Part shown: positions 3,589 to 35,424 of the stretch, piece after piece
Numbering within the stretch: position 1 is the first letter of the stretch
Layout: every line of letters begins with the position of its first letter
Assembly: GCA_041653755.1 (NCBI GenBank)
Contig: JBAZEU010000004.1
Location: 1 to 42,305, forward strand
Reading direction: 5' to 3'
From: Minisyncoccota bacterium
GTDB lineage: Bacteria; Patescibacteriota; Minisyncoccia; UBA6257; UBA9933
Length of the DNA: 42,305 nt
Translations under genes and position numbers: made by a program
The notes under the pieces: model-generated
Told to the model about the DNA's origin: nothing
What the model saw: only the letters and a program-made list of their open reading frames with translations
The model's database searches: none

Positions 3589-4700
3589 GAAGTTTTAATA
3601 GGCATTACGATATAGAAATAGGAACTGTCATCTGGGGACTTGATAACCGCCGGTTTGTTTTCACTATTAAGACCCAGAAATAAATCCTCTCCTTTAATAT
3701 TCTTCAAACCACCCAAAAGGAAGCGCCAATTAAAAGCCGCTTTGTTTTTTTCTCCTTTAATCTTGACCGGGATAAGATATTCGTTTTCTCCGAGGGCCGA
3801 GCTTGACGAAGAAATTTTAATAGATTTTTGATTATCTAAAACAGAGATTTTAATTTCATTGATGCGGTCCGTAAAAATACTGGCGAGCTTAACCGCGTTT
3901 ATAAGTTTATCTTTTTTAATAATTATTTCGGTGTCAATTTCTTTCGGAATGATAGGCTGGTAATCAGGAAATTCTCCGTCTATTAACCGTGAAATTATTT
4001 CTGAATCGTCAATTTTAAAAAGTATTTGATTTGGGTCAAAATAAATAATTGCTTTCTCGGTATTATCCTTAAGTAATCTTATTACCTCTTGAATAGTTTT
4101 AATTGGGACGATAGCCTTAAATCCTTGGGCGATGGTTGATTTAAATTGGCTATTAGGAATTGTTTTTTCTGATAATCTAAAACTATCAGTAGCGGCAACT
4201 TTCAGAAAATTAACCTGATAATCAAAAAGGATTCCGTTTAATTCCGGCCTAGAGCCGGAAACCTGCGCTGACTCTTCGACTAACCCAAGAGCTTCTTTTA
4301 AGACGTTAGATGCGATCTCGACAGAGTTTTGATTGTTGGATATTTTTGGAATCAAAGGGAACTCTTCTTTTTTTATTCCTTGAATTTTCGCTTGATAATC
4401 AGATGTTTTAATAATTAAATTATTGTTTTCTGATTCTAAATTAATTCTTTCTTCCTGAATGTTATTGATAATATTCAGGAATGTATAAACAGGAATTGTT
4501 AAACTCCCACCTTCAATAACCTTCCCTGAAACGAAACCGGTGATTGCTATTTCTAGGTTGGTCGTCAAAAAAAGAATTTTATTTTCAACCGTTTCAATAA
4601 GACAGTTTTTTAAAATAGGCAAAGTTGAATTATCGCTGGCGATTTTTTCAATTTTTTCCAAACCTTCTTTTAAATTTGTTTTTAAGATTATTAGTTTCAT
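3585..4700 (-). CDS. dnaN: DNA polymerase III beta sliding clamp
   Basis: 371 aa directly downstream of dnaA. MKLIILKTNLKEGLEKIEKIASDNSTLPILKNCLI is a typical DnaN N-terminus. Confidence 0.9.
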   Translation of the reverse strand: MKLIILKTNLKEGLEKIEKIASDNSTLPILKNCLIETVENKILFLTTNLEIAITGFVSGKVIEGGSLTIPVYTFLNIINNIQEERINLESENNNLIIKTSDYQAKIQGIKKEEFPLIPKISNNQNSVEIASNVLKEALGLVEESAQVSGSRPELNGILFDYQVNFLKVAATDSFRLSEKTIPNSQFKSTIAQGFKAIVPIKTIQEVIRLLKDNTEKAIIYFDPNQILFKIDDSEIISRLIDGEFPDYQPIIPKEIDTEIIIKKDKLINAVKLASIFTDRINEIKISVLDNQKSIKISSSSSALGENEYLIPVKIKGEKNKAAFNWRFLLGGLKNIKGEDLFLGLNSENKPAVIKSPDDSSYFYIVMPIKTS

Positions 4701-4902
4701 GTTTATATATTAATGGTCGACTTTACTATTATAGTTATTAGTTAATTAAATTAGTAGTTGTATTAGTAAGGGCTGTGAATATGTTGATAATTCTTTTCTA
4801 GGGTTGTTTTAGTTTATGTTTTTAGATTTTTCTTTTTTGCTAACCCATGGATAACTATCGGAAAACTCTTTAATAAATAGTTGATGAATTTATTCATATA
4901 AA
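4701..4902. other. AT-rich dnaA-dnaN spacer; candidate oriC segment / unwinding element
   Basis: 202-bp non-coding AT-rich spacer in the position of Bacillus-type oriC. Only degenerate DnaA-box-like 9-mers: TGTTGATAA 4782-4790 (1 mismatch to TGTGGATAA), TGTGAATAT 4774-4782, CATGGATAA 4846-4854. Confidence 0.4.
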
Positions 4903-6270
4903 TCAGCCATTTTTATATATTAATTCCTTAATTGACGTTATTTTTTGATTTAAGTTTTGTTTCTTTGTGATTTCAAGCGATATTTTCTCGTAAGCATAGA
5001 TGGCGGTAGTGTGATCTCTCTTCCCCAGTTTTTCCCCAATATTTGGGAAGGACATATCCAGGATATCCCTCATCAAAAACATAGTGATTTGTCTTGGTTC
5101 GACCACGTCTTTCTTGCGTGAGCGATTGCTAAGGTCGGCAGGAGACATTTCGTAAAAGTCCGCCACCGCCTTAATAACCTTTGTGGGGCTGATATTTCTG
5201 GTTTTTTCCTGAAGGGTATTGTCGATGATCTCTTCTACGATTTTCGGCAATAAATCAACGCCTTTCACATCCTGGTAGAAGATTATTTTATTCAAAATCC
5301 CCTCTAATTCTCTGATGTTTCTTTGAATTTTAGTTGCGATTAGAGAACAAATTTCGTCCGGCAGGTAGCTCTTTCTTTCTTGAAGCTTGTTTTTAATAAT
5401 CGCCAGACGCATTTCGTACTCAGGATAGGTAATATCAGCGATCATCCCACCTTCGAATCTGGAACGCAGCCTTTCTTCGAGCACCGGCAGAGCGGACGGC
5501 GGTCTGTCGGAAGAAAAGATGATTTGTTTATTGTTTTCATATAAAGCGTTGAAGGTATGGAAAAGTTCTTCCTCGCTTTGTTTTTTACCGCCGATAAATT
5601 GGATATCGTCGATAATTAAAACGTCGGTATTGCGGTATTTTATTTTTGTTTCTTCTGTTCTTTTAGTGCGGATAGCCCAAATTAAATCATTAACGAATTT
5701 TTCTGAACTAACGTATTTTATTTTAACTTTGCCCTTATAAGCGCTTCTGATTTCGTTTCCAATAGCCTGAATTAAATGAGTTTTTCCCAAACCAGTGCCG
5801 CCATAAATAAAAAGCGGATTATATTTTTGACCAATTGATTTTATAATCGCTTGGCTTGCGGCGTAAGCTAATTCGTTTGACGGTCCGACTACAAAAGAGT
5901 TGAAAGTATATTTTGGATGGAGATTAGTCTCTGGGTCGATTTTAAATTCTTCGAAGCCGTCTGCTGCCGCTGGCTCGGCAGATTTTTTAGTTTGTTTGAT
6001 CGGCGCGGTATCTGGTTTCCCGATCACGGTATATTCGATTTTTTTAATTGAATTATCTAAAGAAAAAAGAATACCTAAAAGAAGTTTGTTGTATTTGTTT
6101 TCAACCCATTCTTTGGCAAAGTTGGAAAACAAGCCAACAAGTATTTGACCGTCAGGTTTTTTTTCAATTAATTGGCTATTTTTAAACCAAGTAAGAAAAT
6201 TGGGCCGGGATATCTGAAGTTCAAGTTCAGCCAGAGTAGTTTGCCAAAGTTTTTCAAGTCCAGTCGCCAT
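4903..6270 (-). CDS. dnaA: Chromosomal replication initiator DnaA
   Basis: Walker A GGTGLGKTHL, Walker B LIIDDIQF, C-terminal DNA-binding region ...DHTTAIYAYEKI. Confidence 0.95.
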   Translation of the reverse strand: MATGLEKLWQTTLAELELQISRPNFLTWFKNSQLIEKKPDGQILVGLFSNFAKEWVENKYNKLLLGILFSLDNSIKKIEYTVIGKPDTAPIKQTKKSAEPAAADGFEEFKIDPETNLHPKYTFNSFVVGPSNELAYAASQAIIKSIGQKYNPLFIYGGTGLGKTHLIQAIGNEIRSAYKGKVKIKYVSSEKFVNDLIWAIRTKRTEETKIKYRNTDVLIIDDIQFIGGKKQSEEELFHTFNALYENNKQIIFSSDRPPSALPVLEERLRSRFEGGMIADITYPEYEMRLAIIKNKLQERKSYLPDEICSLIATKIQRNIRELEGILNKIIFYQDVKGVDLLPKIVEEIIDNTLQEKTRNISPTKVIKAVADFYEMSPADLSNRSRKKDVVEPRQITMFLMRDILDMSFPNIGEKLGKRDHTTAIYAYEKISLEITKKQNLNQKITSIKELIYKNG

Positions 6271-6301
6271 AAAAATTAAAAAAATATATTATGTTGGTTT
6301 A

Positions 6302-6329
6302 ATTCTATTCAAAGCTTCAACTAAGTCAA
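6302..6329 (-). promoter_or_regulatory. Candidate dnaA promoter (TTGACT-16 nt-TAGAAT on minus strand)
   Basis: Reverse complement reads TTGACT (6329-6324), 16-nt spacer, TAGAAT (6307-6302). About 31 nt upstream of the dnaA ATG; no SD in the leader. Confidence 0.45.
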
Positions 6330-6382
6330 ACCCTGTTTTTTCTAAAAGTGTTGATTAACTGGGGAAAACTTTTCTTAACCGC

Positions 6383-6411
6383 TTGTTTTCTTGTTAAATC
6401 TCTGGTATATT
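6383..6411 (+). promoter_or_regulatory. Candidate rpmH promoter (TTGTTT-17 nt-TATATT)
   Basis: -35 at 6383-6388 and -10 at 6406-6411. The -10 ends 8 nt before the ATG at 6420, implying a leaderless or near-leaderless mRNA. Confidence 0.4.
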
Positions 6412-6419
6412 ATTCAATA

Positions 6420-6554
6420 ATGTCGTTAACATATCAACCTAAAAAGCGAAAAAGAGCAAGAACACACGGTTTTTTGAAGCGTTCTAGGACTCCTGGAGGG
6501 AGAAGAGTTTTGCAGAGCCGAAGACAAAAGGGCAGAAAAAAACTTTCTGTTTAA
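6420..6554 (+). CDS. rpmH: 50S ribosomal protein L34
   Basis: [44 protein letters not shown] matches L34. The track ORF from 6348 is an upstream hydrophobic extension lying over the predicted promoter. Confidence 0.9.
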
Positions 6555-6592
6555 TTTTTTATAGCGAATAGAATATTCGATATATCAGGCAT

Positions 6593-6949
6593 ATGTTGGC
6601 TAAAAAATTTAAGTTGCCGATTCAAGAAGGCCTTAAAAAAAATCAAAAGGCTTTTAGTTTTTTAAAGGGAAAATATTTTAATTTTAAAATTTCGAAAAAT
6701 GATTTGAATTATTCCCGTTTTGGCGTTATCGTCAGCAGTAAGATTTTTAAAAAAGCATTCGCAAGAAATAAACTAAGAAGAATTATTTTTGAAAAGATAA
6801 GGAGTAAAAATTATTATTTAAACCCCGGGAACGATATACTAATAATAACGTTACCGGAAGCTTCAAAAAATTTCTTAATAGGAGCAGTTGGTATAGAAAA
6901 AATTATTAAAGATTTAGAAAGCAGTTTTAATTTTATACATAACCAATGA
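6593..6949 (+). CDS. rnpA: RNase P protein component
   Basis: Position after rpmH, basic 118-aa protein, RNR-like motif ARNKLRRIIFE. Confidence 0.85.
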   Translation: MLAKKFKLPIQEGLKKNQKAFSFLKGKYFNFKISKNDLNYSRFGVIVSSKIFKKAFARNKLRRIIFEKIRSKNYYLNPGNDILIITLPEASKNFLIGAVGIEKIIKDLESSFNFIHNQ

Positions 6950-7614
6950 AAAATCTTTTTAACATAATTCTCTTCAATCCGCTTTTAAATGCTCTGCTGT
7001 TTTTCTACCAGCATTTTCATGATTTAGGGTTAGCGATTATTCTTTTAACTATTATCGTCCGGCTGATCCTTCTTCCGTTTTTCTATAAGGGCGCCAAAGA
7101 TCAGACGATTATGCAGCGGCTTGCGCCAAAAATAAAAGAGATTCAAAAAACCCATAAAGATAATTTGAACAACCAGACGCAAGAATTGATGAAGCTCTAT
7201 AAAGAACATCGGGTTAATCCTTTGTCGAGTATGCTTTTGTTGATTATCCAATTACCGATTCTTATCGCCCTTTATCAAGTTCTTTTGCATGGCGTTCAGA
7301 AAATAGCCGTTAATCCTTTGTTTTTGAATTGGATTAACCTGACAAAACCGAGTATATTTATTATAGTGATAACGGCGATAGCGTCGTTTTATCAGGGGAT
7401 AATTTCTCTGCCTAAAATCGCGAAAGACAAGGTTTTAAGCCCCACAGACAAGATGAGCAGGAATATGATCTTAATGTCGCCGATGTTCACAGTTGTGATT
7501 CTTTTGTTCTTGCCCTCGGCTCTCGGTTTATATATTCTAGTTAGCGCTGTGTTCTCGATAGTTCAGCAGTTATTCATTAATAAAACATTAAAAGATAAAA
7601 ATCTTCCTGCATAA
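6946..7614 (+). CDS. yidC: Membrane protein insertase YidC/Oxa1 family (short form)
   Basis: ATGA overlap with rnpA. Multi-TM 222-aa protein with the YidC-type loop KEIQKTHKDN...ELMKLYKEHRVNP. Conserved rnpA-yidC-jag synteny. Confidence 0.85.
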   Translation: MKNLFNIILFNPLLNALLFFYQHFHDLGLAIILLTIIVRLILLPFFYKGAKDQTIMQRLAPKIKEIQKTHKDNLNNQTQELMKLYKEHRVNPLSSMLLLIIQLPILIALYQVLLHGVQKIAVNPLFLNWINLTKPSIFIIVITAIASFYQGIISLPKIAKDKVLSPTDKMSRNMILMSPMFTVVILLFLPSALGLYILVSAVFSIVQQLFINKTLKDKNLPA

Positions 7615-7696
7615 GCAAGAAGATTTGTATATAAAATGAATTTTTTATAGAATTTTTTAATTAAATTATATATAAAATTTATAAAATAAATTTTTT

Positions 7697-8125
7697 ATGG
7701 ATTGGTTACAGGAGATTCTAACAAAATTAATTAAGTTGATGGGTTTTGAAGATTTTTCAATAAACTACGATCCCGATCGAAGCCGTTTTATGATTTTCAT
7801 TAATAATCTGGATTCTGAAGAATTAACTTGGCGTTTAATTAATGATTTAAATCATTTAGCGAAAACATTAACAAAGAAGCAAAATCAACAGTCGGTGTTT
7901 ATCGACATCAATAATTATCGGGAAAAAAGAGAAGGATTGATTATCGAACTGGCACGAGCCACCGCCAGAAAGGTGGTAGCGACTAAAACAGAATTAACTT
8001 TGCCTTTTATGAATGCCTACGAAAGGAGATTGATCCATCTAGAGTTGTCCTCTAGGCCAGACGTTAAAACAGAAAGTATTGGCGAGGGCAAAGAAAGGAA
8101 ACTCATTATTAAGCCGATAGATTAA
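7697..8125 (+). CDS. khpB: Jag/KhpB-like R3H RNA-binding protein
   Basis: C-terminal R3H motif MNAYERRLIHLEL. Follows yidC as in most bacteria. Confidence 0.75.
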   Translation: MDWLQEILTKLIKLMGFEDFSINYDPDRSRFMIFINNLDSEELTWRLINDLNHLAKTLTKKQNQQSVFIDINNYREKREGLIIELARATARKVVATKTELTLPFMNAYERRLIHLELSSRPDVKTESIGEGKERKLIIKPID

Positions 8126-8165: not shown

Positions 8166-9260
8166 CTACAAAGCAAACTGATAGAGTTTGTTATCGTAGC
8201 GATTAATAAATATCAAAGAATTTCCAACTTTTGTTAACCTAGAAATATCTATGGGCGCATCAGCGCTCGTGGCGAAAATTTCTTCTGGCTCGTTAGCGCC
8301 ATTAATATCAATCTTATAAATAGAATCATTAAAGTAAACGGCTTTCTTTAAATAGTCATCTGGTAGGTTGATGGCGCCTATTGGCAGGCTTTGGCTGGTT
8401 GCGATAGCGCAATAGAGCAAAGAATCGGCAATGGCGCATTTATCTGGAAGAGTATAGAAATTTAGCGTTGTCTCTTGGCTGTTTTTATCAATTAAAGACA
8501 TTGCTAATTTCTGTTGGTTAGCGGCTAATTTAATTCCTTGGTTTTTATTTTTTTGCCAGTTTATCATTAAGCCGTCTCCCGAAGAAAACAATTTTGCTGA
8601 TTTATCTTTTAAGTTGATTATCCATGCTTCTCCTTTTGTTTGGCTCGATGGTTGTGGGAGTAAAAGCACATTGTCTTTATCTATCCATGAGAGGTCAAAA
8701 TCCTTTTGCGCTAAAGACATAACCGTTGTTGTCTTTTGTTTTGCTTTTGTCGCAAGGTCTTTAATAACCAGATTGCTATTTCCTGACTTAGTGTTGACTA
8801 GGTAAATTATTTTTTGTTCAATTGGTGACCAGTCAGCTGCGGTTATTCCGAGATCTAACGGTTGCCAAACTTTTCTGGAGAGATCGAAGATGTTAAAAGT
8901 AGACGAGGAGAAACTGCCGGATTTTATTAATATCTTTGAGCCATCGCTAGATGCTTTTATTGATTGGAGATTATTGATCGTTTGGCCGCTGATTTCTTCG
9001 TTTTGCTCGCCAGCTTTGAATATTTTTCCATCCAAAGCAATATAAGATATTTCGGTTGTGGTTGTTGAGGTGTTTGCCCAGTAACCAAAAACTTCTTTAT
9101 CGCTTATAGGATTAATTTTTTCTTTTAATAATTCTTCGGCAGTGGGCGAAGGCGTTTTGGTTGGATTCAAATATGGCTTGGCTTTTTGCCAGCCAAAATA
9201 AACTCCAACTCCAAGAGCTAAGAAAGCGACTATTATTATGATGGGCGTTATTTTTCTCAT
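8166..9260 (-). CDS. Membrane-anchored hypothetical protein, possibly beta-propeller-like (last gene of T4SS-like locus)
   Basis: Track ORF 8166-9293. The internal ATG at 9260 gives MRKITPIIIIVAFLALGVGVYFGW (N-terminal TM) and removes a 22-nt overlap with the upstream gene. The remainder is beta-rich and repetitive; no specific family recognised. Confidence 0.6.
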   Translation of the reverse strand: MRKITPIIIIVAFLALGVGVYFGWQKAKPYLNPTKTPSPTAEELLKEKINPISDKEVFGYWANTSTTTTEISYIALDGKIFKAGEQNEEISGQTINNLQSIKASSDGSKILIKSGSFSSSTFNIFDLSRKVWQPLDLGITAADWSPIEQKIIYLVNTKSGNSNLVIKDLATKAKQKTTTVMSLAQKDFDLSWIDKDNVLLLPQPSSQTKGEAWIINLKDKSAKLFSSGDGLMINWQKNKNQGIKLAANQQKLAMSLIDKNSQETTLNFYTLPDKCAIADSLLYCAIATSQSLPIGAINLPDDYLKKAVYFNDSIYKIDINGANEPEEIFATSADAPIDISRLTKVGNSLIFINRYDNKLYQFAL

Positions 9261-9271
9261 AAAAATTTGTT

Positions 9272-10156
9272 TTAAGGTATGACTACGTCCCAATGGAATC
9301 CTCCATTTGTTTGCGACTCCAAATTATATATCGCTCCCGAAGAACAGCGGTAGCGCTCTTTATAGACAGAGCTTGTCCCAGATAACTTAGCACAATTGTT
9401 TAAGATATATGTCGAAAGGTCAGACCCGGCAGTAGCGGGCTGTAGGTCTACTTTATAGCCGTTAGCGTGGCTGTATACGCCTTGTGCATGTCCGGTTTGC
9501 TCACATCCTCCAGTTAGCGTGATCGGACAATCTTGCGTTCCATGGTGGATAGCGTTTTGACAGTGTTTAGCTAAGTCGCCTAATTCGTTTATTGTGTTTT
9601 GTCTTAAGCAGCTGACCTTAGTGCAACCGGGGCAGGATTCCCAAACAGTAATTCCCCATGAAGCTAATTTACTGCGAATCTGTTGCTCGGTGAGAGAAGT
9701 AGCGGGGTTGGTGGTATCAATTAATTCTCCTGTGGAGGAGGCGGTAATAATAGTACCGAAAGAAGGTTCTTCTAGTTTAATTAAATCCGGGTTAATAGTA
9801 TTTAAGATTAAAAATGCTGCTAAGAGCAGAATTACCCCCCAAAGAGCTTGTGTAATTCTATCTCTGGCATCTTTCTGACGAGTCGGATCGCCAGCTGACA
9901 TTGAATATTGAATACCGCCGAAAACAATTATTCCTAAAGCCAAGACACCGACTAGGCCTAATGTGATTAGATAAATTTGCTTTATCAGGGCGCCAAGGCC
10001 AGTTGCATTGGACCATGGGAAGCTGAAAGTTTGTCCTACAGAAGTTTGACCAGTGGTTTGTTCGGCCGCTTTTACAGAAATGAAACAAACCAAAGATAAT
10101 AAGGATAAGAAGATTATACTTAAAATAAAAATATTTTTTGTCTTTTTGAAGTTCAT
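9272..10156 (-). CDS. VirB2/TrbC-like 'T4SS pilin' domain fused to a Cys-rich putative LAS/M15-type peptidoglycan peptidase domain
   Basis: Signal peptide plus two TM helices flanking the motif FGGIQYSMSAGDPTRQKDARDRI, shared with the three pilins at 34.5-35.8 kb. C-terminal half has TGGCEQTGHAQGVYSHANGYKVD (SxHxxGxAxD-like spacing) and GGFHWDV (terminal His). Confidence 0.55.
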   Translation of the reverse strand: MNFKKTKNIFILSIIFLSLLSLVCFISVKAAEQTTGQTSVGQTFSFPWSNATGLGALIKQIYLITLGLVGVLALGIIVFGGIQYSMSAGDPTRQKDARDRITQALWGVILLLAAFLILNTINPDLIKLEEPSFGTIITASSTGELIDTTNPATSLTEQQIRSKLASWGITVWESCPGCTKVSCLRQNTINELGDLAKHCQNAIHHGTQDCPITLTGGCEQTGHAQGVYSHANGYKVDLQPATAGSDLSTYILNNCAKLSGTSSVYKERYRCSSGAIYNLESQTNGGFHWDVVIP

Positions 10157-10177
10157 TTTATATATAATTAATAAATT

Positions 10178-10882
10178 CTATTGAACTGTTAATTTTAAAT
10201 TTTTTGCGGCTGATTCAATGCTTTGCAGAGTGTTTGAAATAGATGCGCTGATATTAAGAGTCAACCCGCTCGGCGTGGAGGTGCCTACGTTAAGATTTAA
10301 AATATCTGGGCCTGTTTCGTTTTCTTCGAGAGAAGCGGCTTGGTTGTTCACGGCCCAGCCAAAAGAAAAGTCATTCAAAGATAGCGCATTAAAGAAAAAC
10401 GGGAGAGCTTCAAGATGATAGCTGCCGCCTATCTTTACTTTTTGTGTTAAATAAGGGGAATTGATTATTGCTTCGGGATTTTTAACGGGGATATAAATAA
10501 ATTTATTCAATTCTTCCCCTTTATAGTTAACGACAGCAATCCGTATTGAGATATTTGTGCCAGCCTGATTCTTTGGAATAAACCTAATATTTTTTAGCCC
10601 AGTTCCCTTGGTGAAGAGTGAATCGTTAATATACCAACGAATTTCTTTTGCGGAAATATTTGCTATTTGATTATTGTCGATTAGCTCGAAAGACACGTCT
10701 ATGGGGGTTGAATAAATTGGGAATGCTTTACCCTGATACCAGTCGGGGGTATAGCTATAGGCTTTCCAAGAGGATAAAAACTGAGGCGTGGAAGTAGCGT
10801 TGACAGAATCAAAAATTAGGAAAGAGAAAAGGATGAGCATCAGACAAAGCGTAAAATTGAGTTTTAAATTATTATTTTTCAT
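10178..10882 (-). CDS. Secreted hypothetical protein (beta-sandwich-like)
   Basis: N-terminal signal-like hydrophobic segment (LCLMLILFSFLIFDSVNA), beta-rich. ATGA overlap with the upstream gene. Confidence 0.6.
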   Translation of the reverse strand: MKNNNLKLNFTLCLMLILFSFLIFDSVNATSTPQFLSSWKAYSYTPDWYQGKAFPIYSTPIDVSFELIDNNQIANISAKEIRWYINDSLFTKGTGLKNIRFIPKNQAGTNISIRIAVVNYKGEELNKFIYIPVKNPEAIINSPYLTQKVKIGGSYHLEALPFFFNALSLNDFSFGWAVNNQAASLEENETGPDILNLNVGTSTPSGLTLNISASISNTLQSIESAAKNLKLTVQ

Positions 10883-11334
10883 TTTTTGGAGTTATTAGGC
10901 ATGGTCATTTGAGCTACTCTTGCTGCGGTTTGAACGATCTTTGCTTGGGGAATAGGAATTAATGATGTTGCCACTTCAGTTGCTTTTAGCGCTGTTTTAA
11001 CTATTCGTGGATGATTCATCACGAAAATGACTATGAACAAACAAAAGGTTCGCATCGGGAGAATATTAATGACTGGGATAAATTTCAGCAAGTTGGCGAC
11101 AATCAATAAAGTGCCCCAAAGCCCACCGATCCTTCTTATTATAAGCCACGTAACTATTACAAGCAAAACAATTATAGCGAGTATCAACTCTAAGGCCAAA
11201 AAAACAGGCATAAGAGCAATTGTTGTCGAGAGTAGATTTGCTACAATGTCAAAAAAGTCAGCTCCACCACAAATCAAAACCATTATGATTGTTTCTGGTA
11301 ATGAAATTTTTTGTTGGTTTTGATTTTCCTCCAT
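10879..11334 (-). CDS. Small polytopic membrane protein (about 4 TM), T4SS-locus component
   Basis: Start taken at ATG 11334 (MEENQNQQKISLPET...), 4 nt after the virB4 stop. The track ORF extends to 11406 inside virB4. Four hydrophobic helices. Confidence 0.6.
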   Translation of the reverse strand: MEENQNQQKISLPETIIMVLICGGADFFDIVANLLSTTIALMPVFLALELILAIIVLLVIVTWLIIRRIGGLWGTLLIVANLLKFIPVINILPMRTFCLFIVIFVMNHPRIVKTALKATEVATSLIPIPQAKIVQTAARVAQMTMPNNSKK

Positions 11335-11338
11335 ATTT

Positions 11339-13093
11339 TTATATTTGTTTTTCTTCCCGCTGCTCCAATAATTGAGCCGGACTAGTGGTAATAATCTGGT
11401 CTTCAAAATAAGAAGCGATTACCTGGATAGCGACATGCTTTAAGCCGGCGAAGAATAATCCTTCTCCAATCGCTGCCTCAAGGAGTAATGATTTTTCCGC
11501 TTCGGTTAGATTAAAAGTTTTTTGGACCAGATCAATTGTTGCCGGTGATTGTTTGAGGAGTAGAGCCAAAGTGGAGTTGGTGATAATTGGTTTGCCATAA
11601 GGCGAGCTTAAGAAATCTTCTACATCTTGAGTGATAGTAGTCACGCCCAAGAAATATTTTCTGGCTCTCTTTACCAAAGAGAATAAGAATGATGCGCTGT
11701 CCGGATATTTCATCATCCACCATGCTTCATCAATCACTAAAATTCTTTGTTTCAACTCGACCCGGATCAAGTTCCAGATGAAATTTAAAACAACATACAT
11801 TGCGATCGGTCGAAGCTCGTCTTCGAGATCTCTGATCGAGAAAACAACTAAGCGGTTGTTGACGTCGACAGAAGTGGGTTTGTTGGCAAAGCCGGCATAA
11901 CTGCCTTTAGTGAATTTATATAATCTTTCAGCTAATCCCCGACCGCCCTCCATGCTTTGCAATATGGTTTGAAAATCTTCCAGAAGCGGCGGAGGAATTT
12001 TAGCGAAGTCCTCTCTCTCCGGAGTTATATTGCGGGAAGTGTATGTTTCAGAAAGCGCTCGATCTAATAAGGCCTCTTCTTCGGCAGTCATTTCGCCAAG
12101 CATCAATTTTAACAAGCCAGTTAAGTTTACGATGTGCGATCTGAATCCTTCTGTCGGCGATTCGCCTTGCGGAACTGGCGGGATATCAAAAGGATTAATG
12201 GAATTTTTAGAGGTTAAAGAGATATTGATAAAGCTTCCGCCAACCGCTTCGGCTAGCTTTTGATATTCGTTCTCCGGATCGATTACTAAGACATCAACCC
12301 CAAGCATCAAAGACCTTAGGATTTCAAGCTTGGTGGCGTAGGATTTACCGGCGCCAGCCATAGCGAATACAACCTTATTAGCATTTTCTAAAGAGAACCT
12401 GTCAAAAATTATTAAGCTGTTATTTTGACGATTAATACCATGGAGCACTCCTTCGTCAGAAGTTAAATCAGTTGAAATAAACGGGAAGAACGAAGAGGTC
12501 GGGCCGGAATTAAGCGGAGTATGTATTAATAATTTATCTTGAGCCAAAGGCAGAGTTGATTGGTATCCTTCGAGCTGTTGGAAGAGAGCTGGCTTCACGT
12601 AGACCAAATGTTCTTCAAAAAGCGAAGTGATTTTATTCTCAAGCTTTGTTAGTTCTTCTAACGTGCTTGCGTACATGGTCAGATAAATACCGACATTGAA
12701 CAATCGTTCTTGGGCCTGTTGAAGAGTGTCGCGTAGTCCTTCAACGTCCTGGAAAGCGGTTTCAAGCAGCGGGTCTCTCACCAATCCTTTTTCATCTCGT
12801 TCCATCAATTGAGCTTGAATTTGAGTAGCCTTTTTTCGGAGGTTCCTTAGGGCCAACGAGGTGTCAACCGGATGAACGAAAATTGAAACATCCATCAAAT
12901 TCGGGAAATTGATAATCGAATTAAACCAGCCAACCGAAAGGTAGCGAGGATAAGTAAAGACGAAAACGCTTTTGATAAAGAAATCGCCAGTTCTTAAATA
13001 TCCCGGGCTGACTTCAAGCGCGGCTGGAGCAATAACGTCTTTTACGTCTTTAGATGAAGCGGTATAGGTTTGTGGTATTTTTATTTTGTTCAT
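11339..13093 (-). CDS. virB4: VirB4/TrbE-family type IV secretion ATPase (C-terminal 584-aa portion)
   Basis: Walker A FAMAGAGKSYATK and Walker B ILVIDEAWWMM. N-terminal region IAPAALEVSPGYLRTGDFFIKSVFVFTYPRYLSVGW is typical of Gram-positive-type VirB4. Confidence 0.85.
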   Translation of the reverse strand: MNKIKIPQTYTASSKDVKDVIAPAALEVSPGYLRTGDFFIKSVFVFTYPRYLSVGWFNSIINFPNLMDVSIFVHPVDTSLALRNLRKKATQIQAQLMERDEKGLVRDPLLETAFQDVEGLRDTLQQAQERLFNVGIYLTMYASTLEELTKLENKITSLFEEHLVYVKPALFQQLEGYQSTLPLAQDKLLIHTPLNSGPTSSFFPFISTDLTSDEGVLHGINRQNNSLIIFDRFSLENANKVVFAMAGAGKSYATKLEILRSLMLGVDVLVIDPENEYQKLAEAVGGSFINISLTSKNSINPFDIPPVPQGESPTEGFRSHIVNLTGLLKLMLGEMTAEEEALLDRALSETYTSRNITPEREDFAKIPPPLLEDFQTILQSMEGGRGLAERLYKFTKGSYAGFANKPTSVDVNNRLVVFSIRDLEDELRPIAMYVVLNFIWNLIRVELKQRILVIDEAWWMMKYPDSASFLFSLVKRARKYFLGVTTITQDVEDFLSSPYGKPIITNSTLALLLKQSPATIDLVQKTFNLTEAEKSLLLEAAIGEGLFFAGLKHVAIQVIASYFEDQIITTSPAQLLEQREEKQI

Positions 13094-13108
13094 AGAATAT
13101 GAAATATT

Positions 13109-13768
13109 TTATCCATTCGTTTCTTTCGCAATTTCCAGACCTTTTTTCTTCGCCGAAGGATTATAAAGGTTATAGAAAAGCTCGATCAGTTCTTCGTCGT
13201 TCAACGGGACAGCGCGTAAACCGATTTGCGCCAAACCTTGAAGTGTTTGATCAGTTCGCTGATCAAGCTGGCGAATTTTTTCTTCTAGTGTTTGATTAAT
13301 TGGTTGATTTTGACTGACCATTTGTCCGCCGCTCTTTAAAAGCTGGAAAGCTTTTTGTCCGCCCTTGGGTATTTGGGAAATATCATAGGGAATAATGACA
13401 AAAAAAGTTTTTGTCATTATTTCGTTTTCGGCGACGAAAGAATTAATAAATTGGCGATATTCGCTGATTTGGTTTTTTAAGAGCTCGTTAGTTTCTATTT
13501 CTTCTTTCTCCGCTAGTTTTTCGAGATACGATTCGATGTTCAGCTTTCGGGAATGAATAATTATCTGAGTCGAAAAATCTAAGGAATTTAAAAAGTTTTG
13601 ATAAGCAAAAATAATCGAGCTTTGTTCTTCCTCCGATTTGAGATCAAAATTAAGACCAGCCACCATCAATACCCGGCGTAAACCGCCATTCTTTAAAATT
13701 ACAACGCCGTCTTTAATCTCTTCGATATCGACAAATTGTTGCGTAGATTTTGAAATTTGTTTAGGCAT
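13109..13768 (-). CDS. VirB4 N-terminal-domain-like protein (219 aa), in frame with downstream virB4
   Basis: FVDIEEIKDGVVILKNGGLRRVLMVAGLNFDLKSEEEQSSIIFAYQNFLNSL resembles the extreme N-terminus of ~800-aa Gram-positive VirB4 ATPases (recalled pattern, not searched). Ends TAA at 13109-13111, in the same frame as ATG 13093. Confidence 0.5.
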   Translation of the reverse strand: MPKQISKSTQQFVDIEEIKDGVVILKNGGLRRVLMVAGLNFDLKSEEEQSSIIFAYQNFLNSLDFSTQIIIHSRKLNIESYLEKLAEKEEIETNELLKNQISEYRQFINSFVAENEIMTKTFFVIIPYDISQIPKGGQKAFQLLKSGGQMVSQNQPINQTLEEKIRQLDQRTDQTLQGLAQIGLRAVPLNDEELIELFYNLYNPSAKKKGLEIAKETNG

Positions 13769-13774
13769 ATGTTT

Positions 13775-14311
13775 TTATCGATAGTCCACTCTCCTGGCGG
13801 CTTCTTTTTGGCCGGAAAGTTTTCTGAATAATTCGAATCTTTCGGTTGATTTGACTGCCGGTGCGATTGTCCTTTCTCTTTTCGGCAGAGGATTTTTGGT
13901 AGTCGCAAGGTCTCGCCAAAGGTTTTTAATGTCTGGCATTTCAGAAAAAAAGTTTTTAAGAGATTCTCTCTTTATAACAACATTTTGCTCTTTGACTTCT
14001 CTGGTTTCTGGCAGAATGATTTCTTTGGTAATTTCTTCTCTTTGCCAGAGATAAAGCCGGGGATTTGTGAAGAAATTTATGGCGGAAACAACAACTTTTA
14101 TCAGCGGTTGGCCGTTAACTTTTATAAAGGCGAAAGCCATGGCAGCAACTATTAAAATCATAGCAATTATAATCCAAAGCCAAAACTTTAAGACGAAGAA
14201 AAGCGCAAAGCATAAAGCGCCGGCAGCGGCAAAAAACAGAAATTGTTTGATGGTTAGCGGCCCTACGATTTTATCCTCTGTCTCGATAAATTGCGGAACT
14301 TGGAATTGCAT
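13775..14311 (-). CDS. PrgI-family (VirB3-like) membrane protein
   Basis: MQFQVPQFIETEDKIVGPLTIKQFLFFAAAGAL followed by two TM helices is the PrgI-family signature. Sits immediately upstream of VirB4, as in Gram-positive T4SS. Confidence 0.65.
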   Translation of the reverse strand: MQFQVPQFIETEDKIVGPLTIKQFLFFAAAGALCFALFFVLKFWLWIIIAMILIVAAMAFAFIKVNGQPLIKVVVSAINFFTNPRLYLWQREEITKEIILPETREVKEQNVVIKRESLKNFFSEMPDIKNLWRDLATTKNPLPKRERTIAPAVKSTERFELFRKLSGQKEAARRVDYR

Positions 14312-15510
14312 TATTTTCGTAAATCAATAATAGTTTCGTCTTTGCCTGCCTGCCGGTAGGCAGGGGTTTTTTCGACCTCGGTTTTTATTTTTACTTTTTG
14401 AAGATCTACTAAGTCGATCATTTCTTCATCTTTTGTGATAGTCGCTACGGTCGGTTCTTTATCTTTTGCTGGTTCAGGTGGTTTAGGCAGGGCAACAACT
14501 GGTGGCAATTGTTGAGGCGGCTTAGGAAGTTCTATTGGGATAACAGTTGGAATAGGTTGTCTTGGCGGCGTGATAGGCGCTTTGGGAACTATCGGTAAAG
14601 TCGTTATTGTTTTAGCTTGCATTGGGGAAAGATTTTTTTCTTCAGGATATGTTTTCGGCGATGGAGGAATTGGTGTGACAGAAATAATTTTCGGCTTAAA
14701 AGATGGAGGCGGCGTTGGAGTGATAGGTTTCTGCCCAACGAACATTTTTGGCCCTCCGTCTGTCTGATCGGTTTGTTTCTGGGGTTCAAATTGAGTGTAA
14801 TGGACTACTTTAAATGTTGGCGCTCCGGTTTTAGCTACGGTTGGTTTTTCTTGCGGTCTTTGCGTTGGTGTCTCAATTTCAGCAATAATTTTTTCTTTGG
14901 AAGCTGTTTCTTTCCTTCTAGAGAAACCAAATAGTCCTCCTAGTGTTGGCTTTCTTTTCTCTGTGGTTATTGGGGTGGCTGACGCAATTGTTTCTGATTT
15001 GAATAAAATTGCCGGACCTTCTTCTGGCGCTGGTGGCATTGATGGTGTTAGTGGCTTCGGTTCCTCTTTTGGTTCTTGGCTTTTCGGTTGTTCGGATGGT
15101 CGTAGGTCTACTGGCGGTATGGAACTTTTCATTTCTTGCCGAGATATCGTTGGCGGAGTGGTTTGCTTTGATTCTTCTGTTGGCGGTAGAGGCGAATAAT
15201 TTTTTTCGATTTCTTCTTTTAACGGAGAGAAAATTCTTTTTCCAATATCTTTTGCAACGTTATCGGCAACCTTATAGTTAAGCCCTGTTATTTCTTGGAT
15301 TTCTTTCGCCATGTCTTCGGAATGTAAAAATCCTAAAAGTACTTCTCCTGTAACCATTGCCACATCGTCAACCCATTCTTTCTTTAGATAGTTGGTCTGG
15401 CAAACAGTATTAATTAGACTATAAATAGCTGTTGAATTCAGAATGTTGCTTATCTTTTCTGGAAGATTCTTAGCTCTTTTAACGATTTCTCCTTCGGGTA
15501 TGAAAAGCAT
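14311..15510 (-). CDS. Proline-rich hypothetical protein (globular ~110-aa N-domain + long P/T/K/E low-complexity region)
   Basis: 399-aa ORF with TAATG 1-nt overlap with the PrgI-like gene. No TM seen. Contains an in-frame GC hairpin near its 3' end. Confidence 0.6.
   Translation of the reverse strand: MLFIPEGEIVKRAKNLPEKISNILNSTAIYSLINTVCQTNYLKKEWVDDVAMVTGEVLLGFLHSEDMAKEIQEITGLNYKVADNVAKDIGKRIFSPLKEEIEKNYSPLPPTEESKQTTPPTISRQEMKSSIPPVDLRPSEQPKSQEPKEEPKPLTPSMPPAPEEGPAILFKSETIASATPITTEKRKPTLGGLFGFSRRKETASKEKIIAEIETPTQRPQEKPTVAKTGAPTFKVVHYTQFEPQKQTDQTDGGPKMFVGQKPITPTPPPSFKPKIISVTPIPPSPKTYPEEKNLSPMQAKTITTLPIVPKAPITPPRQPIPTVIPIELPKPPQQLPPVVALPKPPEPAKDKEPTVATITKDEEMIDLVDLQKVKIKTEVEKTPAYRQAGKDETIIDLRK
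14345..14364. repeat. GC-rich palindrome CCTGCC-TGCCGGTA-GGCAGG inside coding sequence
   Basis: Encodes PAYRQAG in frame, 11 codons before the stop of the proline-rich gene. Sharply GC-rich versus its flanks. Confidence 0.5.
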
Positions 15511-15516
15511 AGGATT

Positions 15517-16860
15517 TTATTTTTTGCCTTTTGGCATAAGATTTTTTATGAACTTTTGTCCTTCTTTCGTTGTGAGATGATAACGCATCCTTTCCGTAAT
15601 GGAGCCCATTAAGGTTGGCGGGGTGCTAATCGGGGACGACCCTCCAAAAGTTGTTGCTCGGCGATAAGCGCCAGTTATCCCTTGGCCGATTGCTCTTGTG
15701 AAGCGATTGTTACCTTGGCTTGCCATCCTGGCGGTTTGGTTTGCTATTGGTCCGGTTGCTCTTGTAGCTCCTCGAGCAGCTAACCTAGACATCCAGAGTG
15801 CAGTTCCTGCCCCAACTCCAATCCCTGCGGCCATGGTTATCCCTAAAATTTTATCTGCACCCTTGATCCCTATCATATTGGCGATTATAAGCCCGCCCAA
15901 TAGTAGACCCGTAAAAATAAAGTAATTCCCAATAGTAGCCCATGGAGAGGCGAAAGCGGACCCGACGTTAGTAAATCCTTGCGCACCTCCTTTATACCCC
16001 GCAGTAAGGGCGAAAGAAATAAAAAGCATCATAACTGGAGCAAAGAAAATCCATCTTAGAAAATGAGTCCACCATTTTTTCCATAGATCTATTGTCGCCG
16101 GGAAAATAGAACAAAGCCAAGCTAACGGCGACAATACGACTAGAATACCAACGACCACATATCTGATAAGCAACATAATAATGATGCCGATCATAGTTAG
16201 TAAAAGAATTACCATACAAACTAGCGAAAAAATCGGGGCAGCTATGCCCGTCGCTACCACATTGCCAGTTTCTTTTATTATCCCAACAAGCGCTCCTTCT
16301 TGTCCTCCTATGTTATTTATCCCAGAGAGATTTAATATTGTATTCCCAATTTCATCTATCTTGGTGTCTCCCAAGATTGCTTTCGTGGCTATATTGGAAA
16401 TGTCGCCGATAGCAGCGCAAATCATTAAGCTGAAATTGACTAAAAGAGCGGCAACGATTAATTTTGTTAAGGTTTTTTTGAAACCATAGTTTTCCATTCT
16501 TAGAATCGTGCCAAAAGCAACGACGATAATAGCCAAAACAAATCCTAAATTAGCGATGTCTCTGGCTTTTTGCCAAGCTCCATATATATAAGAATTACTA
16601 GGGTTGAATATCTCGTTGTTTATGTTAATAGCAAAACCTAAAAATCCTGCAAAAATTTTGGAAATTACCCAGATAATCGGTTTCGCTACAACTGTAATGA
16701 AAATATTAGTTGCGCCTACTAGTGCATTTTTGGTAACTTCTCCCAGCGAAAATAAAGCAGCAGAAGCTTTATGTGGGCTAACAGCGTAAATTATCGTTAT
16801 CCCGAACACCAGGACGATTACGACAAGAAGAAATAAATTTTTGTATTTCTTAGTCATCAT
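15517..16860 (-). CDS. Polytopic membrane protein, VirB6/TrbL-like candidate
   Basis: 447 aa with a signal-like N-terminus and at least 6 hydrophobic helices plus a basic C-terminal tail. Size, topology and position in a VirB4 locus fit VirB6 analogues. No sequence motif verified. Confidence 0.45.
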   Translation of the reverse strand: MMTKKYKNLFLLVVIVLVFGITIIYAVSPHKASAALFSLGEVTKNALVGATNIFITVVAKPIIWVISKIFAGFLGFAININNEIFNPSNSYIYGAWQKARDIANLGFVLAIIVVAFGTILRMENYGFKKTLTKLIVAALLVNFSLMICAAIGDISNIATKAILGDTKIDEIGNTILNLSGINNIGGQEGALVGIIKETGNVVATGIAAPIFSLVCMVILLLTMIGIIIMLLIRYVVVGILVVLSPLAWLCSIFPATIDLWKKWWTHFLRWIFFAPVMMLFISFALTAGYKGGAQGFTNVGSAFASPWATIGNYFIFTGLLLGGLIIANMIGIKGADKILGITMAAGIGVGAGTALWMSRLAARGATRATGPIANQTARMASQGNNRFTRAIGQGITGAYRRATTFGGSSPISTPPTLMGSITERMRYHLTTKEGQKFIKNLMPKGKK

Positions 16861-18137
16861 TAGATGATGCTACATCGTTGTTGGGTGAATTGTAGTTGTC
16901 GAAGTTCTTGCTGGGCGGCATCTATGTCGTCATTTGTAAGGAAATTTTGATAGACGTCCCCGTTATTCACAATAAAGCTGTTATAGTCATTTTGCGCTTT
17001 TTGTTGATCTGCCGGAGTAGTTGCGCTTTGAGCCTCGTTAAGAATAAAACTAAGCTGGCTGACTGTGCTTTGGATAACGGCGATTTCTTGAGTCAAGGAA
17101 GCAACTTTTGCTGCGGCTTCAGTGCCATTAGAACAACGGCTCGCAACTATGGCATTCGCTGCGCTAAGCGATTGCTGCTTAATATTCAAAAGACTATTTT
17201 CGTGATTTAGAAGGCCTTGTGTGTCACTAATAAGCTGAGCTAGCAATTGTGATGAGGTACTGGAAGATTGTTCTGACCACCCGCTACCGCTAGCTGAAAT
17301 AGTGGTTCCTCCTGAAGAAGAGCTTAAACCCATTTGATCCAAACCACCTTGTATGAATCGATTGATTAAAGCATTTGCGAGAGCGGAAAAAGGCGATTCA
17401 ACATTGCTTATAAAATCAAAATTTATCGTTAGAGCTTTTGAGACCACGTCTTTAATCGATTGCCCTGGAGTGGCTATTATTTCTCGTATACAATCTCCAG
17501 CGTCGCTCGTCTCTAAACATTTTTTTGCAGAAAGATATCCTTGACCGGCGACGGCTTCGTTTTGGGCGGCGTCAGCCTTAGCTGTTCCTCTGGTTGTCAT
17601 TTCATCTTTGATTAAAGCTACGGCACCATAAAGGTTGTTTTGGGGTTCAAAAACATTACCGCCGGAATCCAATGTACATTTTATTTTTTCTGCGAAACCA
17701 TCAGTACTTGGGTTCGAGTTATCCGACAATGACATGCCTAATGTTCGTTGCAAATCATCTCTAAACTCTGGACAAATATAATCAGCCGGAATTTCTTGCC
17801 AAGCTTCGTTTTCTCCTCTTGCGTATGCTTGATTTGAATAACTTTCCCAATTTGTGACAAATTGCGGTGAGCCGTCTCCCTGAATCCAATGAATTACTTG
17901 GTCAGAGAGCAGGTTTAATATCTCGTGAACAACTGCATCACGAAATCCTTGAGTGGCGAAATCCTTTGCCCACTGTAGGACATTAGACACTGTTTGTGCG
18001 ATATTGGTGTGTATAAGCGCAGGGTCAATAACAACATATTGTGCATGTGCTTTTTGAGGTACCAATGTTATTGCAGAGGAAATGATTAATACGACGACGA
18101 TAAAAGTAGAAAAAGATTTTTTAAAATATTCGTTCAT
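16860..18137 (-). CDS. Secreted hypothetical protein, possible VirB5/TrbJ-like
   Basis: Signal peptide (...LVPQKAHA|QYVVIDPALIHTNIAQTV). The mature N-terminus resembles the TrbJ/VirB5 start. Ser-rich linker and helical C-terminus. TAATG overlap with the VirB6-like gene. Confidence 0.35.
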   Translation of the reverse strand: MNEYFKKSFSTFIVVVLIISSAITLVPQKAHAQYVVIDPALIHTNIAQTVSNVLQWAKDFATQGFRDAVVHEILNLLSDQVIHWIQGDGSPQFVTNWESYSNQAYARGENEAWQEIPADYICPEFRDDLQRTLGMSLSDNSNPSTDGFAEKIKCTLDSGGNVFEPQNNLYGAVALIKDEMTTRGTAKADAAQNEAVAGQGYLSAKKCLETSDAGDCIREIIATPGQSIKDVVSKALTINFDFISNVESPFSALANALINRFIQGGLDQMGLSSSSGGTTISASGSGWSEQSSSTSSQLLAQLISDTQGLLNHENSLLNIKQQSLSAANAIVASRCSNGTEAAAKVASLTQEIAVIQSTVSQLSFILNEAQSATTPADQQKAQNDYNSFIVNNGDVYQNFLTNDDIDAAQQELRQLQFTQQRCSII

Positions 18138-18176
18138 ATTTTTTTATAGCGAAATTTTATTTCGATATAACCTTGG

Positions 18177-19016
18177 TTATAGACCGACACTTTTAGCTTT
18201 TAAGTTTATAATAGTTTGGATATCTAAACCGGTTTTTAACAATTGGTTGATAGCATTGAAAGCTAAATAGGCCTTCAATGGATCCGATTGTATGTTTCCT
18301 ATCGCTCCATAAATAATCTTAGCATTTTGATAATAAGTAAGTAAGTCCTTATGAGAAGATAGCCATGCATAAGGGGCGGGGGTGGTTAAAAGTTTGTCAT
18401 AAGAACAAGCATAGGCGTCAGAAAAGTTTTTTGCCAAAGTTCCGTCTTTTCTTTCGAAAGCGTTTGATAATGCTTGGGTAGCGCTATCGTTGACTTGAGC
18501 AAAACAATTGATGGCGATATCTCGAAGGTTTTGGAGATATTCTTTTTTAATGCTTGGTGCGTTGGAATAATTGATTTTCAATATTTTTTCGTCAATTGCT
18601 TGATTAAGCGGGAGGTAATCTTTGGTGTTTATATCTTTCAAGGCGGCATCAGAAATTTGCTGTTGATCAGAAGACAAATTCTGGCCTGTTTTGTAATTTA
18701 ATAAATCGCCGCTCGCTCCTAGAATCTTTGAAGCCATATCTTTTGTAAGAGCTTGAGTAAGATTTTGGTCTGAAAGATCGGTTGATGAAGTCGAAGCAGG
18801 GTTTTTGGTAAAAAAATTCTTAATGGATTCTATGCTTAGGTTTGACAAAGGGTTATTTGGGTTGTTCCAAAAAGAATTTGGATTTTGAGCGGAAGTTATT
18901 GGTTTTATATCGCTTCTAAACACAAACCAGCAGCCTATAAGTAAAATTGCCGCTATGATGAAAAAAACACTAAGTTTTAGCGGGTTCATTGACTTTATTA
19001 TACAGAAAATGCGCAA
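18177..19016 (-). CDS. Membrane-anchored hypothetical protein (first gene of T4SS-like locus)
   Basis: ORF abuts the rsmA stop (19017). An alternative start at 18989 gives MNPLKLSVFFIIAAILLIGCWFV (TM anchor). No family recognised. Confidence 0.55.
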   Translation of the reverse strand: MRIFCIIKSMNPLKLSVFFIIAAILLIGCWFVFRSDIKPITSAQNPNSFWNNPNNPLSNLSIESIKNFFTKNPASTSSTDLSDQNLTQALTKDMASKILGASGDLLNYKTGQNLSSDQQQISDAALKDINTKDYLPLNQAIDEKILKINYSNAPSIKKEYLQNLRDIAINCFAQVNDSATQALSNAFERKDGTLAKNFSDAYACSYDKLLTTPAPYAWLSSHKDLLTYYQNAKIIYGAIGNIQSDPLKAYLAFNAINQLLKTGLDIQTIINLKAKSVGL

Positions 19017-19832
19017 TTAAAACAAAGTGGATAACGCTGTCAATTGATTAATTGACAGGTTTTGGGGCCGAGAACCTGGATCGATACCAGCTTTTTTCAA
19101 TATTTCTTCTATAGCAAGTTTACTTGATATATCGAAACGAAGTTTTGATATTTCTGGTTTATTCTTTTCGGTGCCCGCGGAAAGATTGTTTAAAATCGTT
19201 TTCCTTGGTTGCTTAAAAATAATCTTTATTAGTTTGTAGTACTCAGTTTGTAGTTCGTAGTCTATAAAAGAACAAGGAGTTAATTTGATGATTGCGGAAT
19301 TGACTTTTGGCTGGGGCTGGAAAGCGGCTTTCGGGATATAGTCAATAATTTCCGGTTTGGCCCAGAATTGGATAGAGGCGGCCAGAAGATTCATTCCGTC
19401 CTTTCCCATAATCCTTTCCGCGACTTCTTTTTGGATGGTGAAAACGATTATCTCTGGCTTTGGCTCCAAATCGGCAATAATTCTAAAAAGATAGCCGGTT
19501 ATATAATAAGGTATGTTACCGACCAACTTGTATCCTGGATCATGAATCTTAAATCTTGAAACGATTTGCGGTAGAACCTTTAAGGCGTCTCCTTGGATAA
19601 CCTCAATTTTATCGTCTGATTTATGATCCAAGATCCATGATGCAAGACGCGGGTCTTTTTCAATCGTGATAATTCTGCATTCGGAATTTTTAGCCCTTAA
19701 CTCTCTGGTTAGTTCTCCGTGCCCTGGGCCAATTTCAACAATAAAATCGCCTTTTTCAATTTTTAGGGCTTCAACGATCTTTTCTAAAGAATCCTTATCT
19801 TTTAAGAAATGTTGACCAAGTCTTTGCGGCAT
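19017..19832 (-). CDS. rsmA: 16S rRNA (adenine1518/1519-N6)-dimethyltransferase RsmA/KsgA
   Basis: MPQRLGQHFLKD..., SAM motif VEIGPGHGELT, GNIPYYIT. Confidence 0.9.
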   Translation of the reverse strand: MPQRLGQHFLKDKDSLEKIVEALKIEKGDFIVEIGPGHGELTRELRAKNSECRIITIEKDPRLASWILDHKSDDKIEVIQGDALKVLPQIVSRFKIHDPGYKLVGNIPYYITGYLFRIIADLEPKPEIIVFTIQKEVAERIMGKDGMNLLAASIQFWAKPEIIDYIPKAAFQPQPKVNSAIIKLTPCSFIDYELQTEYYKLIKIIFKQPRKTILNNLSAGTEKNKPEISKLRFDISSKLAIEEILKKAGIDPGSRPQNLSINQLTALSTLF

Positions 19833-34549: not shown

Positions 34550-34962
34550 AAAAAATAATTTCAATCCCAGTTCTTTTTTCCGCTTTATATCTTTTGCTTT
34601 CTACTCCGGTTTTTGCTGCCGGTTTAGTTCCTTGTAGCGGAGCCGATTGCACTTTTAATTGTTTCATGAAGATGTTTCATGATATTCTCTATAACTTGGT
34701 TTTGTTGAAAATCGTTATTCCTTTGGTCGTGGTTACGATTGTTTGGGGAGGTTTTATGATGATGTTTTCTGCTGGAGATCCTAAAAAAGCCGAAACCGGC
34801 AAAAAAATTATTACCAGCGCCGTAGTTGGAGCAGTTATTGTTTTTTGCGGCTGGCTGATCGTTAATCTTCTTTTTTCTGTATTGGTGAAGCCGAGCGCTT
34901 TAAGCCAAAGTCCACTGCTGGAAGGAAGTCATTGGTATAACGTAAGAATCAGTTGTCCTTGA
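34546..34962 (+). CDS. VirB2/TrbC-like T4SS pilin paralogue 1
   Basis: Signal peptide (...STPVFA|AG). TM1-WGGFMMMFSAGDPKKAETGKKIITSAVVGAVIV-TM2. Confidence 0.65.
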   Translation: MKKIISIPVLFSALYLLLSTPVFAAGLVPCSGADCTFNCFMKMFHDILYNLVLLKIVIPLVVVTIVWGGFMMMFSAGDPKKAETGKKIITSAVVGAVIVFCGWLIVNLLFSVLVKPSALSQSPLLEGSHWYNVRISCP

Positions 34963-34992
34963 TTTTAGAATTAAAACAATTAGAATTTTATT

Positions 34993-35376: not shown

Positions 35377-35424
35377 ATAAAAGGTCGAGACGAAAACGAA
35401 CTATTTTATTTTAAATTTAATCAA

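Follow-up and report, generated by a model that had tools for sequence, protein, structure and literature searches.

Introduction

TrsD is remotely homologous to the N-terminal part of VirB4. It is the most abundant component of the type IV secretion systems (T4SSs) of Patescibacteria, and its gene mostly adjoins virB4 (Quinonero-Coronel et al. 2025, Microb Genom, PMC12102498). That study counted 2,272 TrsD homologues, of which 1,664 were associated with VirB4, described the T4SSs of Patescibacteria as often lying near the origin of replication and, citing Wang et al. 2023 (PMC10633639), listed the TrsD homologue of Ca. Southlakia epibionticum ML1 as essential. Here we analyze a TrsD-like gene of 219 amino acids (aa) and a virB4 gene of 584 aa on a 42,305-nt stretch of DNA from a Minisyncoccota bacterium (assembly GCA_041653755.1, contig JBAZEU010000004.1, positions 1–42,305 of the forward strand), which we call the window. 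The two open reading frames (ORFs) share a frame and are separated by a single TAA, which could suggest an interrupted gene. We are nonetheless highly confident that VirB4 is encoded here as two polypeptides by a normal TrsD and VirB4 gene pair.

The second system to which we compared the locus is the TrsD/TraD and TrsE/TraE (VirB4) pair of pGO1/pSK41-type Gram-positive conjugation (MPF_FATA class, NCBIfam model NF041427). Bacillales plasmids carry a VirB3-like gene, a TrsD gene of ~200 aa and a VirB4 ATPase gene of ~620–660 aa as separate genes in differing frames, arranged as in the window; on the Bacillus subtilis plasmid CP120574.1, for example, trsD is followed by a DUF87 ATPase gene. The order VirB3-like, trsD, VirB4 is in line with the pGO1 prototype.

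The window locus differs in nothing essential from the Patescibacteria pair. In both, a small protein homologous to the VirB4 N-terminus is encoded beside virB4, on the same strand and by a separate gene; a PrgI/VirB3-like gene lies upstream, VirB2-like pilin genes occur in the locus and nearby, and the setting is chromosomal, near dnaA/dnaN, in a small genome (0.67 Mb) of a Patescibacteria host. Only the junction in the window is peculiar, with its 23-nt insertion, shared frame and 8-codon mini-ORF. That Patescibacteria carry trsD beside virB4 is known from published work (PMC12102498). As for the pGO1/pSK41-type pair, the TrsD-like match spans its whole NF041427 model (positions 13–200 of 201), but identity is ~24–32% and the score lies under the family cut-off. 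Moreover, those systems sit on conjugative plasmids with relaxases, whereas the window locus is chromosomal and sits next to the origin of replication.

Results

Complementary coverage of VirB4 by two genes

The minus-strand junction reads ...ACG AAT GGA TAA AAT ATT TCA TAT TCT ATG AAC... Here the TAA (13111–13109) that closes the TrsD-like gene (13109–13768, minus strand) is followed by five sense codons and then, in the common frame, by the ATG (13093–13091) of the virB4 gene body (11339–13093, minus strand). The genes are thus separate, on the same strand and 15 nt apart. The initial annotation had reported two ORFs in one frame with a single TAA and five codons between them, and its coordinates and arithmetic are correct on the sequence.

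The 584-aa protein passes the curated cut-off of the VirB4-like CD1110 family (NF045971; 365.5 bits, cut-off 325), covering positions 181–732 of the 752 in that model. Of the first ~180 positions, which it leaves uncovered, positions 2–116 are supplied by the 219-aa protein, and no single polypeptide spans the whole model. Residues 214–569 of the 584-aa protein match the VirB4 C-terminal domain in PDB 4AG5 (E = 2.9e-46). Its Walker A (GAGKS) and Walker B (DEAW) motifs are invariant in our alignment of relatives (A3), and its N-terminus, MNKIKIPQTYT, fits their conserved M-x-K-I-K-I-P start. The gene body encodes the second part of the VirB4 N-terminal domain together with the C-terminal ATPase domain.

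Besides NF045971, the 219-aa protein matches N-terminal positions of two other NCBIfam VirB4 models, NF045975 (101–233) and TIGR00929 (11–186). The precomputed Pfam families of this protein and its relatives are PF26593 (TraC-like) and PF27097 (VirB4_TrbE_N). When its AlphaFold2 (AF2) model (pLDDT, the predicted local confidence, 77.8) was compared with PDB, the 14 best fold matches were all TrwK/VirB4 chains of R388, with probability 1.0 and a query-normalised TM-score of ~0.5. A sequence profile of 32 TrsD-like proteins matched no PDB chain at E <= 1, so the link between the TrsD-like protein and VirB4 structures comes from the fold search only.

Joined into one translation with X at the stop, the ORFs align with TIGR00929 in one stretch (18–725 of 792) and reach 393.5 bits against NF045971. 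They are also collinear with a naturally fused 796-aa orthologue in a relative of the same order (G029; 58% identity over 802 aa). The ORF junction falls within a variable region that was modelled with low confidence. Because profile coverage is complementary, the alignment runs in one stretch and the fused orthologue is collinear, the two genes are complementary parts of one VirB4. This bears out the initial annotation, which took the short ORF for the VirB4 N-terminal module and the long ORF for the remainder with the ATPase: profile, fold and alignment evidence agree, and the comparison it proposed, of the concatenated translation with full-length VirB4, gives collinearity with both TIGR00929 and the fused protein.

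By these comparisons, the TrsD-like protein corresponds to the first ~180–200 residues of full-length VirB4 and is its free-standing first subdomain. Since the neighboring VirB4 lacks exactly those ~180 positions and G029 has both parts fused, TrsD is the missing first VirB4 subdomain rather than an extra paralogue of the VirB4 N-terminus. Full-length VirB4 proteins such as TrwK of R388 (PDB 7O42, 7O43 and 8RTB) and the Thermoanaerobacter VirB4 (4AG5) offer the same comparison: the two ORFs together are collinear with the VirB4 profile, but unlike in TrwK, the Thermoanaerobacter protein or the G029 fusion, the first ~200 residues are a separate polypeptide in the window. The VirB4 of Mycoplasma integrative and conjugative elements (Mbov_0397 family, NF045975, 894 positions) goes further. 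Its model takes in the window's PrgI-like protein at 23–129, the TrsD-like protein at 101–233 and the VirB4 body at 289–893, so that three modules of one protein there are three genes in the window.

Conservation of the split among relatives

We compared the locus with 41 genomes of the same family or order and with 401 genomes sampled across the phylum, for which the best ~150 matches were listed. The N-domain protein is present in 39 of the 41 relatives, nearly always as a free-standing open frame of ~215–240 aa, and the gene was found in 383 of the 401 phylum genomes. Among the matches listed, all open frames measure 214–375 aa save that of G029, which is the sole fusion among these and the 41 relatives. 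The protein database holds 3609 stand-alone homologues. Alignments A2 and A3 show both window ORFs to be intact and well conserved, and every relative ends its TrsD gene within a few codons of the point at which the window gene stops. Judged by this distribution, the split of VirB4 into two genes is both ancient and general in the phylum.

The fusion in G029 (L035:722–3109, G029:C5) is a 796-aa protein in an 816-aa open frame, with little conservation around the junction. Its existence shows a fused VirB4 to be viable and the split and fused arrangements to be interconvertible.

Another relative departs from the common pattern in a different way. The TrsD-like gene of G030 (L038, G030:C3, ~3709–3885, minus strand) has an in-frame TGA at about codon 59, at the conserved Tyr56. 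TrsD homology continues beyond this TGA, and virB4 starts ~500 nt downstream, near the expected end of the TrsD frame, and has no internal TGA. The in-frame TGA may reflect a pseudogene, an assembly error or local recoding. Spacers between trsD and virB4 are long in three relatives, with 434 nt in L017 (G005), 122 nt in L022 (G025) and 96–138 nt in L028 (G028); elsewhere they measure 0–40 nt.

Reading frame at the junction

Junctions were taken from 38 relatives, in each of which the TrsD stop and the virB4 start were located; frame counts are reported for 37 split relatives. The virB4 frame relative to the TrsD stop is 0, +1 and +2 in 13, 18 and 7 cases, respectively, and the in-frame share does not depart from the 1/3 expected by chance (binomial p = 0.86). 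The five closest relatives (72–90% identity) have offsets of +1 (with an 8-nt overlap), +2, +2, 0 (with three in-frame stops) and +1. A single in-frame stop, as in the window, occurs in 8 of the 37.

Genes at this junction tend to touch. The virB4 start codon overlaps the TrsD stop in 12 relatives, by 14, 11, 8, 4 or 1 nt, and most of the non-overlapping starts lie within 7 nt of the stop. Overlaps of start and stop codons are the usual signature of separate genes that are translationally coupled. Frame +1 is somewhat over-represented (18/37, p = 0.055; junctions of L013–L050 and L005), which is due to several recurrent overlap types (ATGGAGAAAATTAA, ATGGATAA, TAAnATG) that set the virB4 start in this frame.

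Because related genomes have the two ORFs in differing frames, the shared frame in the window is coincidental, no more than chance gives. The weight that the initial annotation placed on a single in-frame TAA does not survive this comparison, and differing frames in related genomes are the very observation that it had named as speaking against its idea. In the orthologous loci that it proposed to compare, the split is kept, with G029 as the only fusion among the matches listed, the closest relative has the TAA at the same codon, and the shared frame is not conserved.

A 23-nt insertion and a mini-ORF

What sets the window apart from its closest relative (L051) can be traced in an alignment with L051, G015 and G006. 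In L051, TrsD ends ...AAT GGA TAA, and virB4 starts at the ATG inside A-ATG-GAT-AA, reads MDKIKIPQTYT and overlaps the TrsD stop by 8 nt in the +1 frame. The window shares this ATGGAT but continues with 23 additional nt, AAAATATTTCATATTCTATGAAC (13110–13088, minus strand), which are absent from L051, before AAAATAAAAATACCACAA follows. Because the insert lies between ATGGAT and AAAATAAAAATACCACAA, the working virB4 start is the second ATG, that of MNKIKIPQTYT, and the extra 23 nt move the virB4 start from the +1 frame with an 8-nt overlap to frame 0, 15 nt past the stop.

Read directly from the sequence, the insert also leaves an 8-codon mini-ORF (13090–13116, minus strand) that would encode MDKIFHIL. 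At one end its ATG (13116–13114) shares letters with the TrsD stop (ATGGATAA), and at the other its TGA does so with the virB4 ATG (ATGA). By comparison with L051, the mini-ORF ATG appears to be a relic of the older virB4 start. A homologous insert is found in genus G015 (L041/L055), with the same 12-nt repeat and an 11-nt spacer, and the equivalent mini-ORF there, MNKILHDL and a stop, likewise ends in an ATGA overlap. Given the homologous insert in G015, the 23 nt were probably present in the common ancestor, and a deletion between the 12-nt direct repeats probably removed them from L051. A repeated mobile element was also considered and rejected, since searches of the window and of the genome each found a single copy of the insert.

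The insert may have created a translated relay ORF of eight codons, in which two successive termination–reinitiation events would hand ribosomes from trsD to virB4, although we consider this rather unlikely. In a bolder variant, rare readthrough of the TAA may give a small amount of fused full-length VirB4. The insert and the mini-ORF are minor local curiosities.

No Shine-Dalgarno site was found before the virB4 ATG, which is uninformative, as nearly all window genes are without one. More generally, almost none of the gene starts in the window (for example 13769–13793 and 13094–13118) have a Shine-Dalgarno-like motif within 25 nt upstream (<=25 nt), and the leaders are A/T-rich.

How the pair would work, and alternatives

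In our reading, translation of the first gene would end at the TAA (13111–13109) and virB4 would start independently at the ATG at 13093. The relative frame of the two genes drifts freely across the phylum, with the virB4 start often overlapping the TrsD stop, and the 23-nt insert at the virB4 start produces the picture of one stop plus five codons by accident. The VirB3–TrsD–VirB4 triad is presumably co-transcribed, with translation of virB4 coupled to that of trsD, possibly through termination and reinitiation via the 8-codon mini-ORF. If the N-terminal domain of TrwK/VirB4 in the R388 structures is a guide, TrsD would take the place of the first subdomain of that domain; at the cytoplasmic face of the secretion channel, it may bind non-covalently to the VirB4 body and to the VirB3-like anchor.

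Several points weigh against this reading. Both products are known from their genes, in an uncultured organism. The score of the 219-aa protein against the TrsD/TraD model NF041427 (E = 5.6e-10, 39.4 bits) is far under the curated cut-off of 200 bits and leaves the protein outside the family by that rule, so we call it TrsD-like rather than a member; the NCBIfam model served here as a proxy for the MPF_FATA TrsD profile (CONJScan/MacSyFinder set) used in PMC12102498. Lastly, we modelled the read-through fusion with AF2 from 8 rows of in-frame relatives, their TAA translated as Q, together with the natural fusion of G029; the model reached a pLDDT of 54.1 and a predicted TM-score (pTM) of 0.40, too poor for judging how TrsD and VirB4 pack.

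The initial annotation had named a genuine two-polypeptide VirB4 as one of four options, and the phylum-wide conservation of the split singles it out and contradicts each of the others. Programmed readthrough of the TAA would add a minor full-length VirB4 (~809 aa) to the two polypeptides and fix the proportion of short to long forms. The shared frame and lone stop in the window would allow it, G029 demonstrates that a fused protein is viable in nature, and a single in-frame stop recurs in 8 of the 37 split relatives. However, we consider it very improbable: the frame is not kept across relatives (13/18/7, p = 0.86), virB4 of the closest relative starts in a different frame with an 8-nt overlap, three stops lie in the spacer of G015, the next in-frame relative, and the in-frame state itself stems from a lineage-specific 23-nt indel. 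The stop codon does not favor leakage either. TAA is the least leaky bacterial stop codon; it is also the commonest in the window, closing about two thirds of ORFs, and its context here, TAAa, is frequent and ordinary there.

While a recent nonsense mutation in a former single virB4 of ~800 aa would account for both the common frame of the ORFs and their collinearity with full-length VirB4, such pseudogenisation is hardly credible. A stop occupies the homologous place across the phylum, 39 of the 41 relatives included, and an uninterrupted gene was not seen in close relatives, with G029 the only fusion among the 41 and the phylum matches listed. Both ORFs remain intact and well conserved, and the 584-aa ORF has its own conserved ATG followed by the M-x-K-I-K-I-P N-terminus. 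We give equally little credence to a false stop made by sequencing or assembly error. The assembly is of metagenome type and consists of 20 contigs, but the independent, 90%-identical assembly of L051 carries TAA at the same TrsD codon, records of exactly this 219-aa protein exist for two contigs, and in every relative the gene stops no more than a few codons away.

Genomic context

The first gene of the triad encodes a PrgI/VirB3-like membrane protein of 178 aa (13775–14311, minus strand) that scores over the cut-off for Pfam PF12666 PrgI (E = 1.4e-11); a PrgI-like gene precedes the TrsD-like gene in L051 and L054–L057 as well. No promoter-like or terminator-like site was found between the triad genes on the minus strand. 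The T4SS locus comprises eleven ORFs on the minus strand (8166–19016). One flank holds dnaN (3585–4700), dnaA (4903–6270), yidC and a jag-like R3H gene (together 3585–8125), and the other holds rsmA (19017–19832). The locus begins ~2 kb from dnaA/dnaN, which lie 2–5 kb off, in agreement with the published origin-proximal placement (PMC12102498). The genome is a 0.67-Mb Patescibacteria assembly; its nearest proteins are named Wolfebacteria or Paceibacterota, and Patescibacteria also occurs among the names of proteins of relatives. No relaxase was recognisable among the ORFs scanned, a scan that included no systematic relaxase test.

Pilin genes with T4SS_pilin Pfam matches lie at 9272–10156 and 34546–35754. 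In the 294-aa protein encoded at 9272–10156 (minus strand), similarity to the T4SS pilin domain (PF18895) and to the Mbov_0395 pilin-like family is confined to residues 53–121. No family matches the C-terminal ~170 aa, which makes this a pilin module fused to something else. A 425-aa ORF of the T4SS locus (16860–18137, minus strand) matches DUF4141 at residues 17–55 with 25.8 bits, under the cut-off of 30, and the neighboring ORFs of 399 and 447 aa have no Pfam or NCBIfam match.

Implications

For annotation, neither a pseudogene nor a recoding site should be recorded here: the 219-aa gene encodes a TrsD-like VirB4 N-domain protein, and together with the 584-aa gene it forms a normal two-gene VirB4. 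Beyond correct annotation, the finding has little importance. In Ca. Southlakia epibionticum, the only species tested, epibiotic growth requires the Patescibacteria T4SS (PMC10633639). Describing TrsD as the missing first subdomain of VirB4 is slightly sharper than the published wording and would be useful for modelling the T4SS of Patescibacteria.

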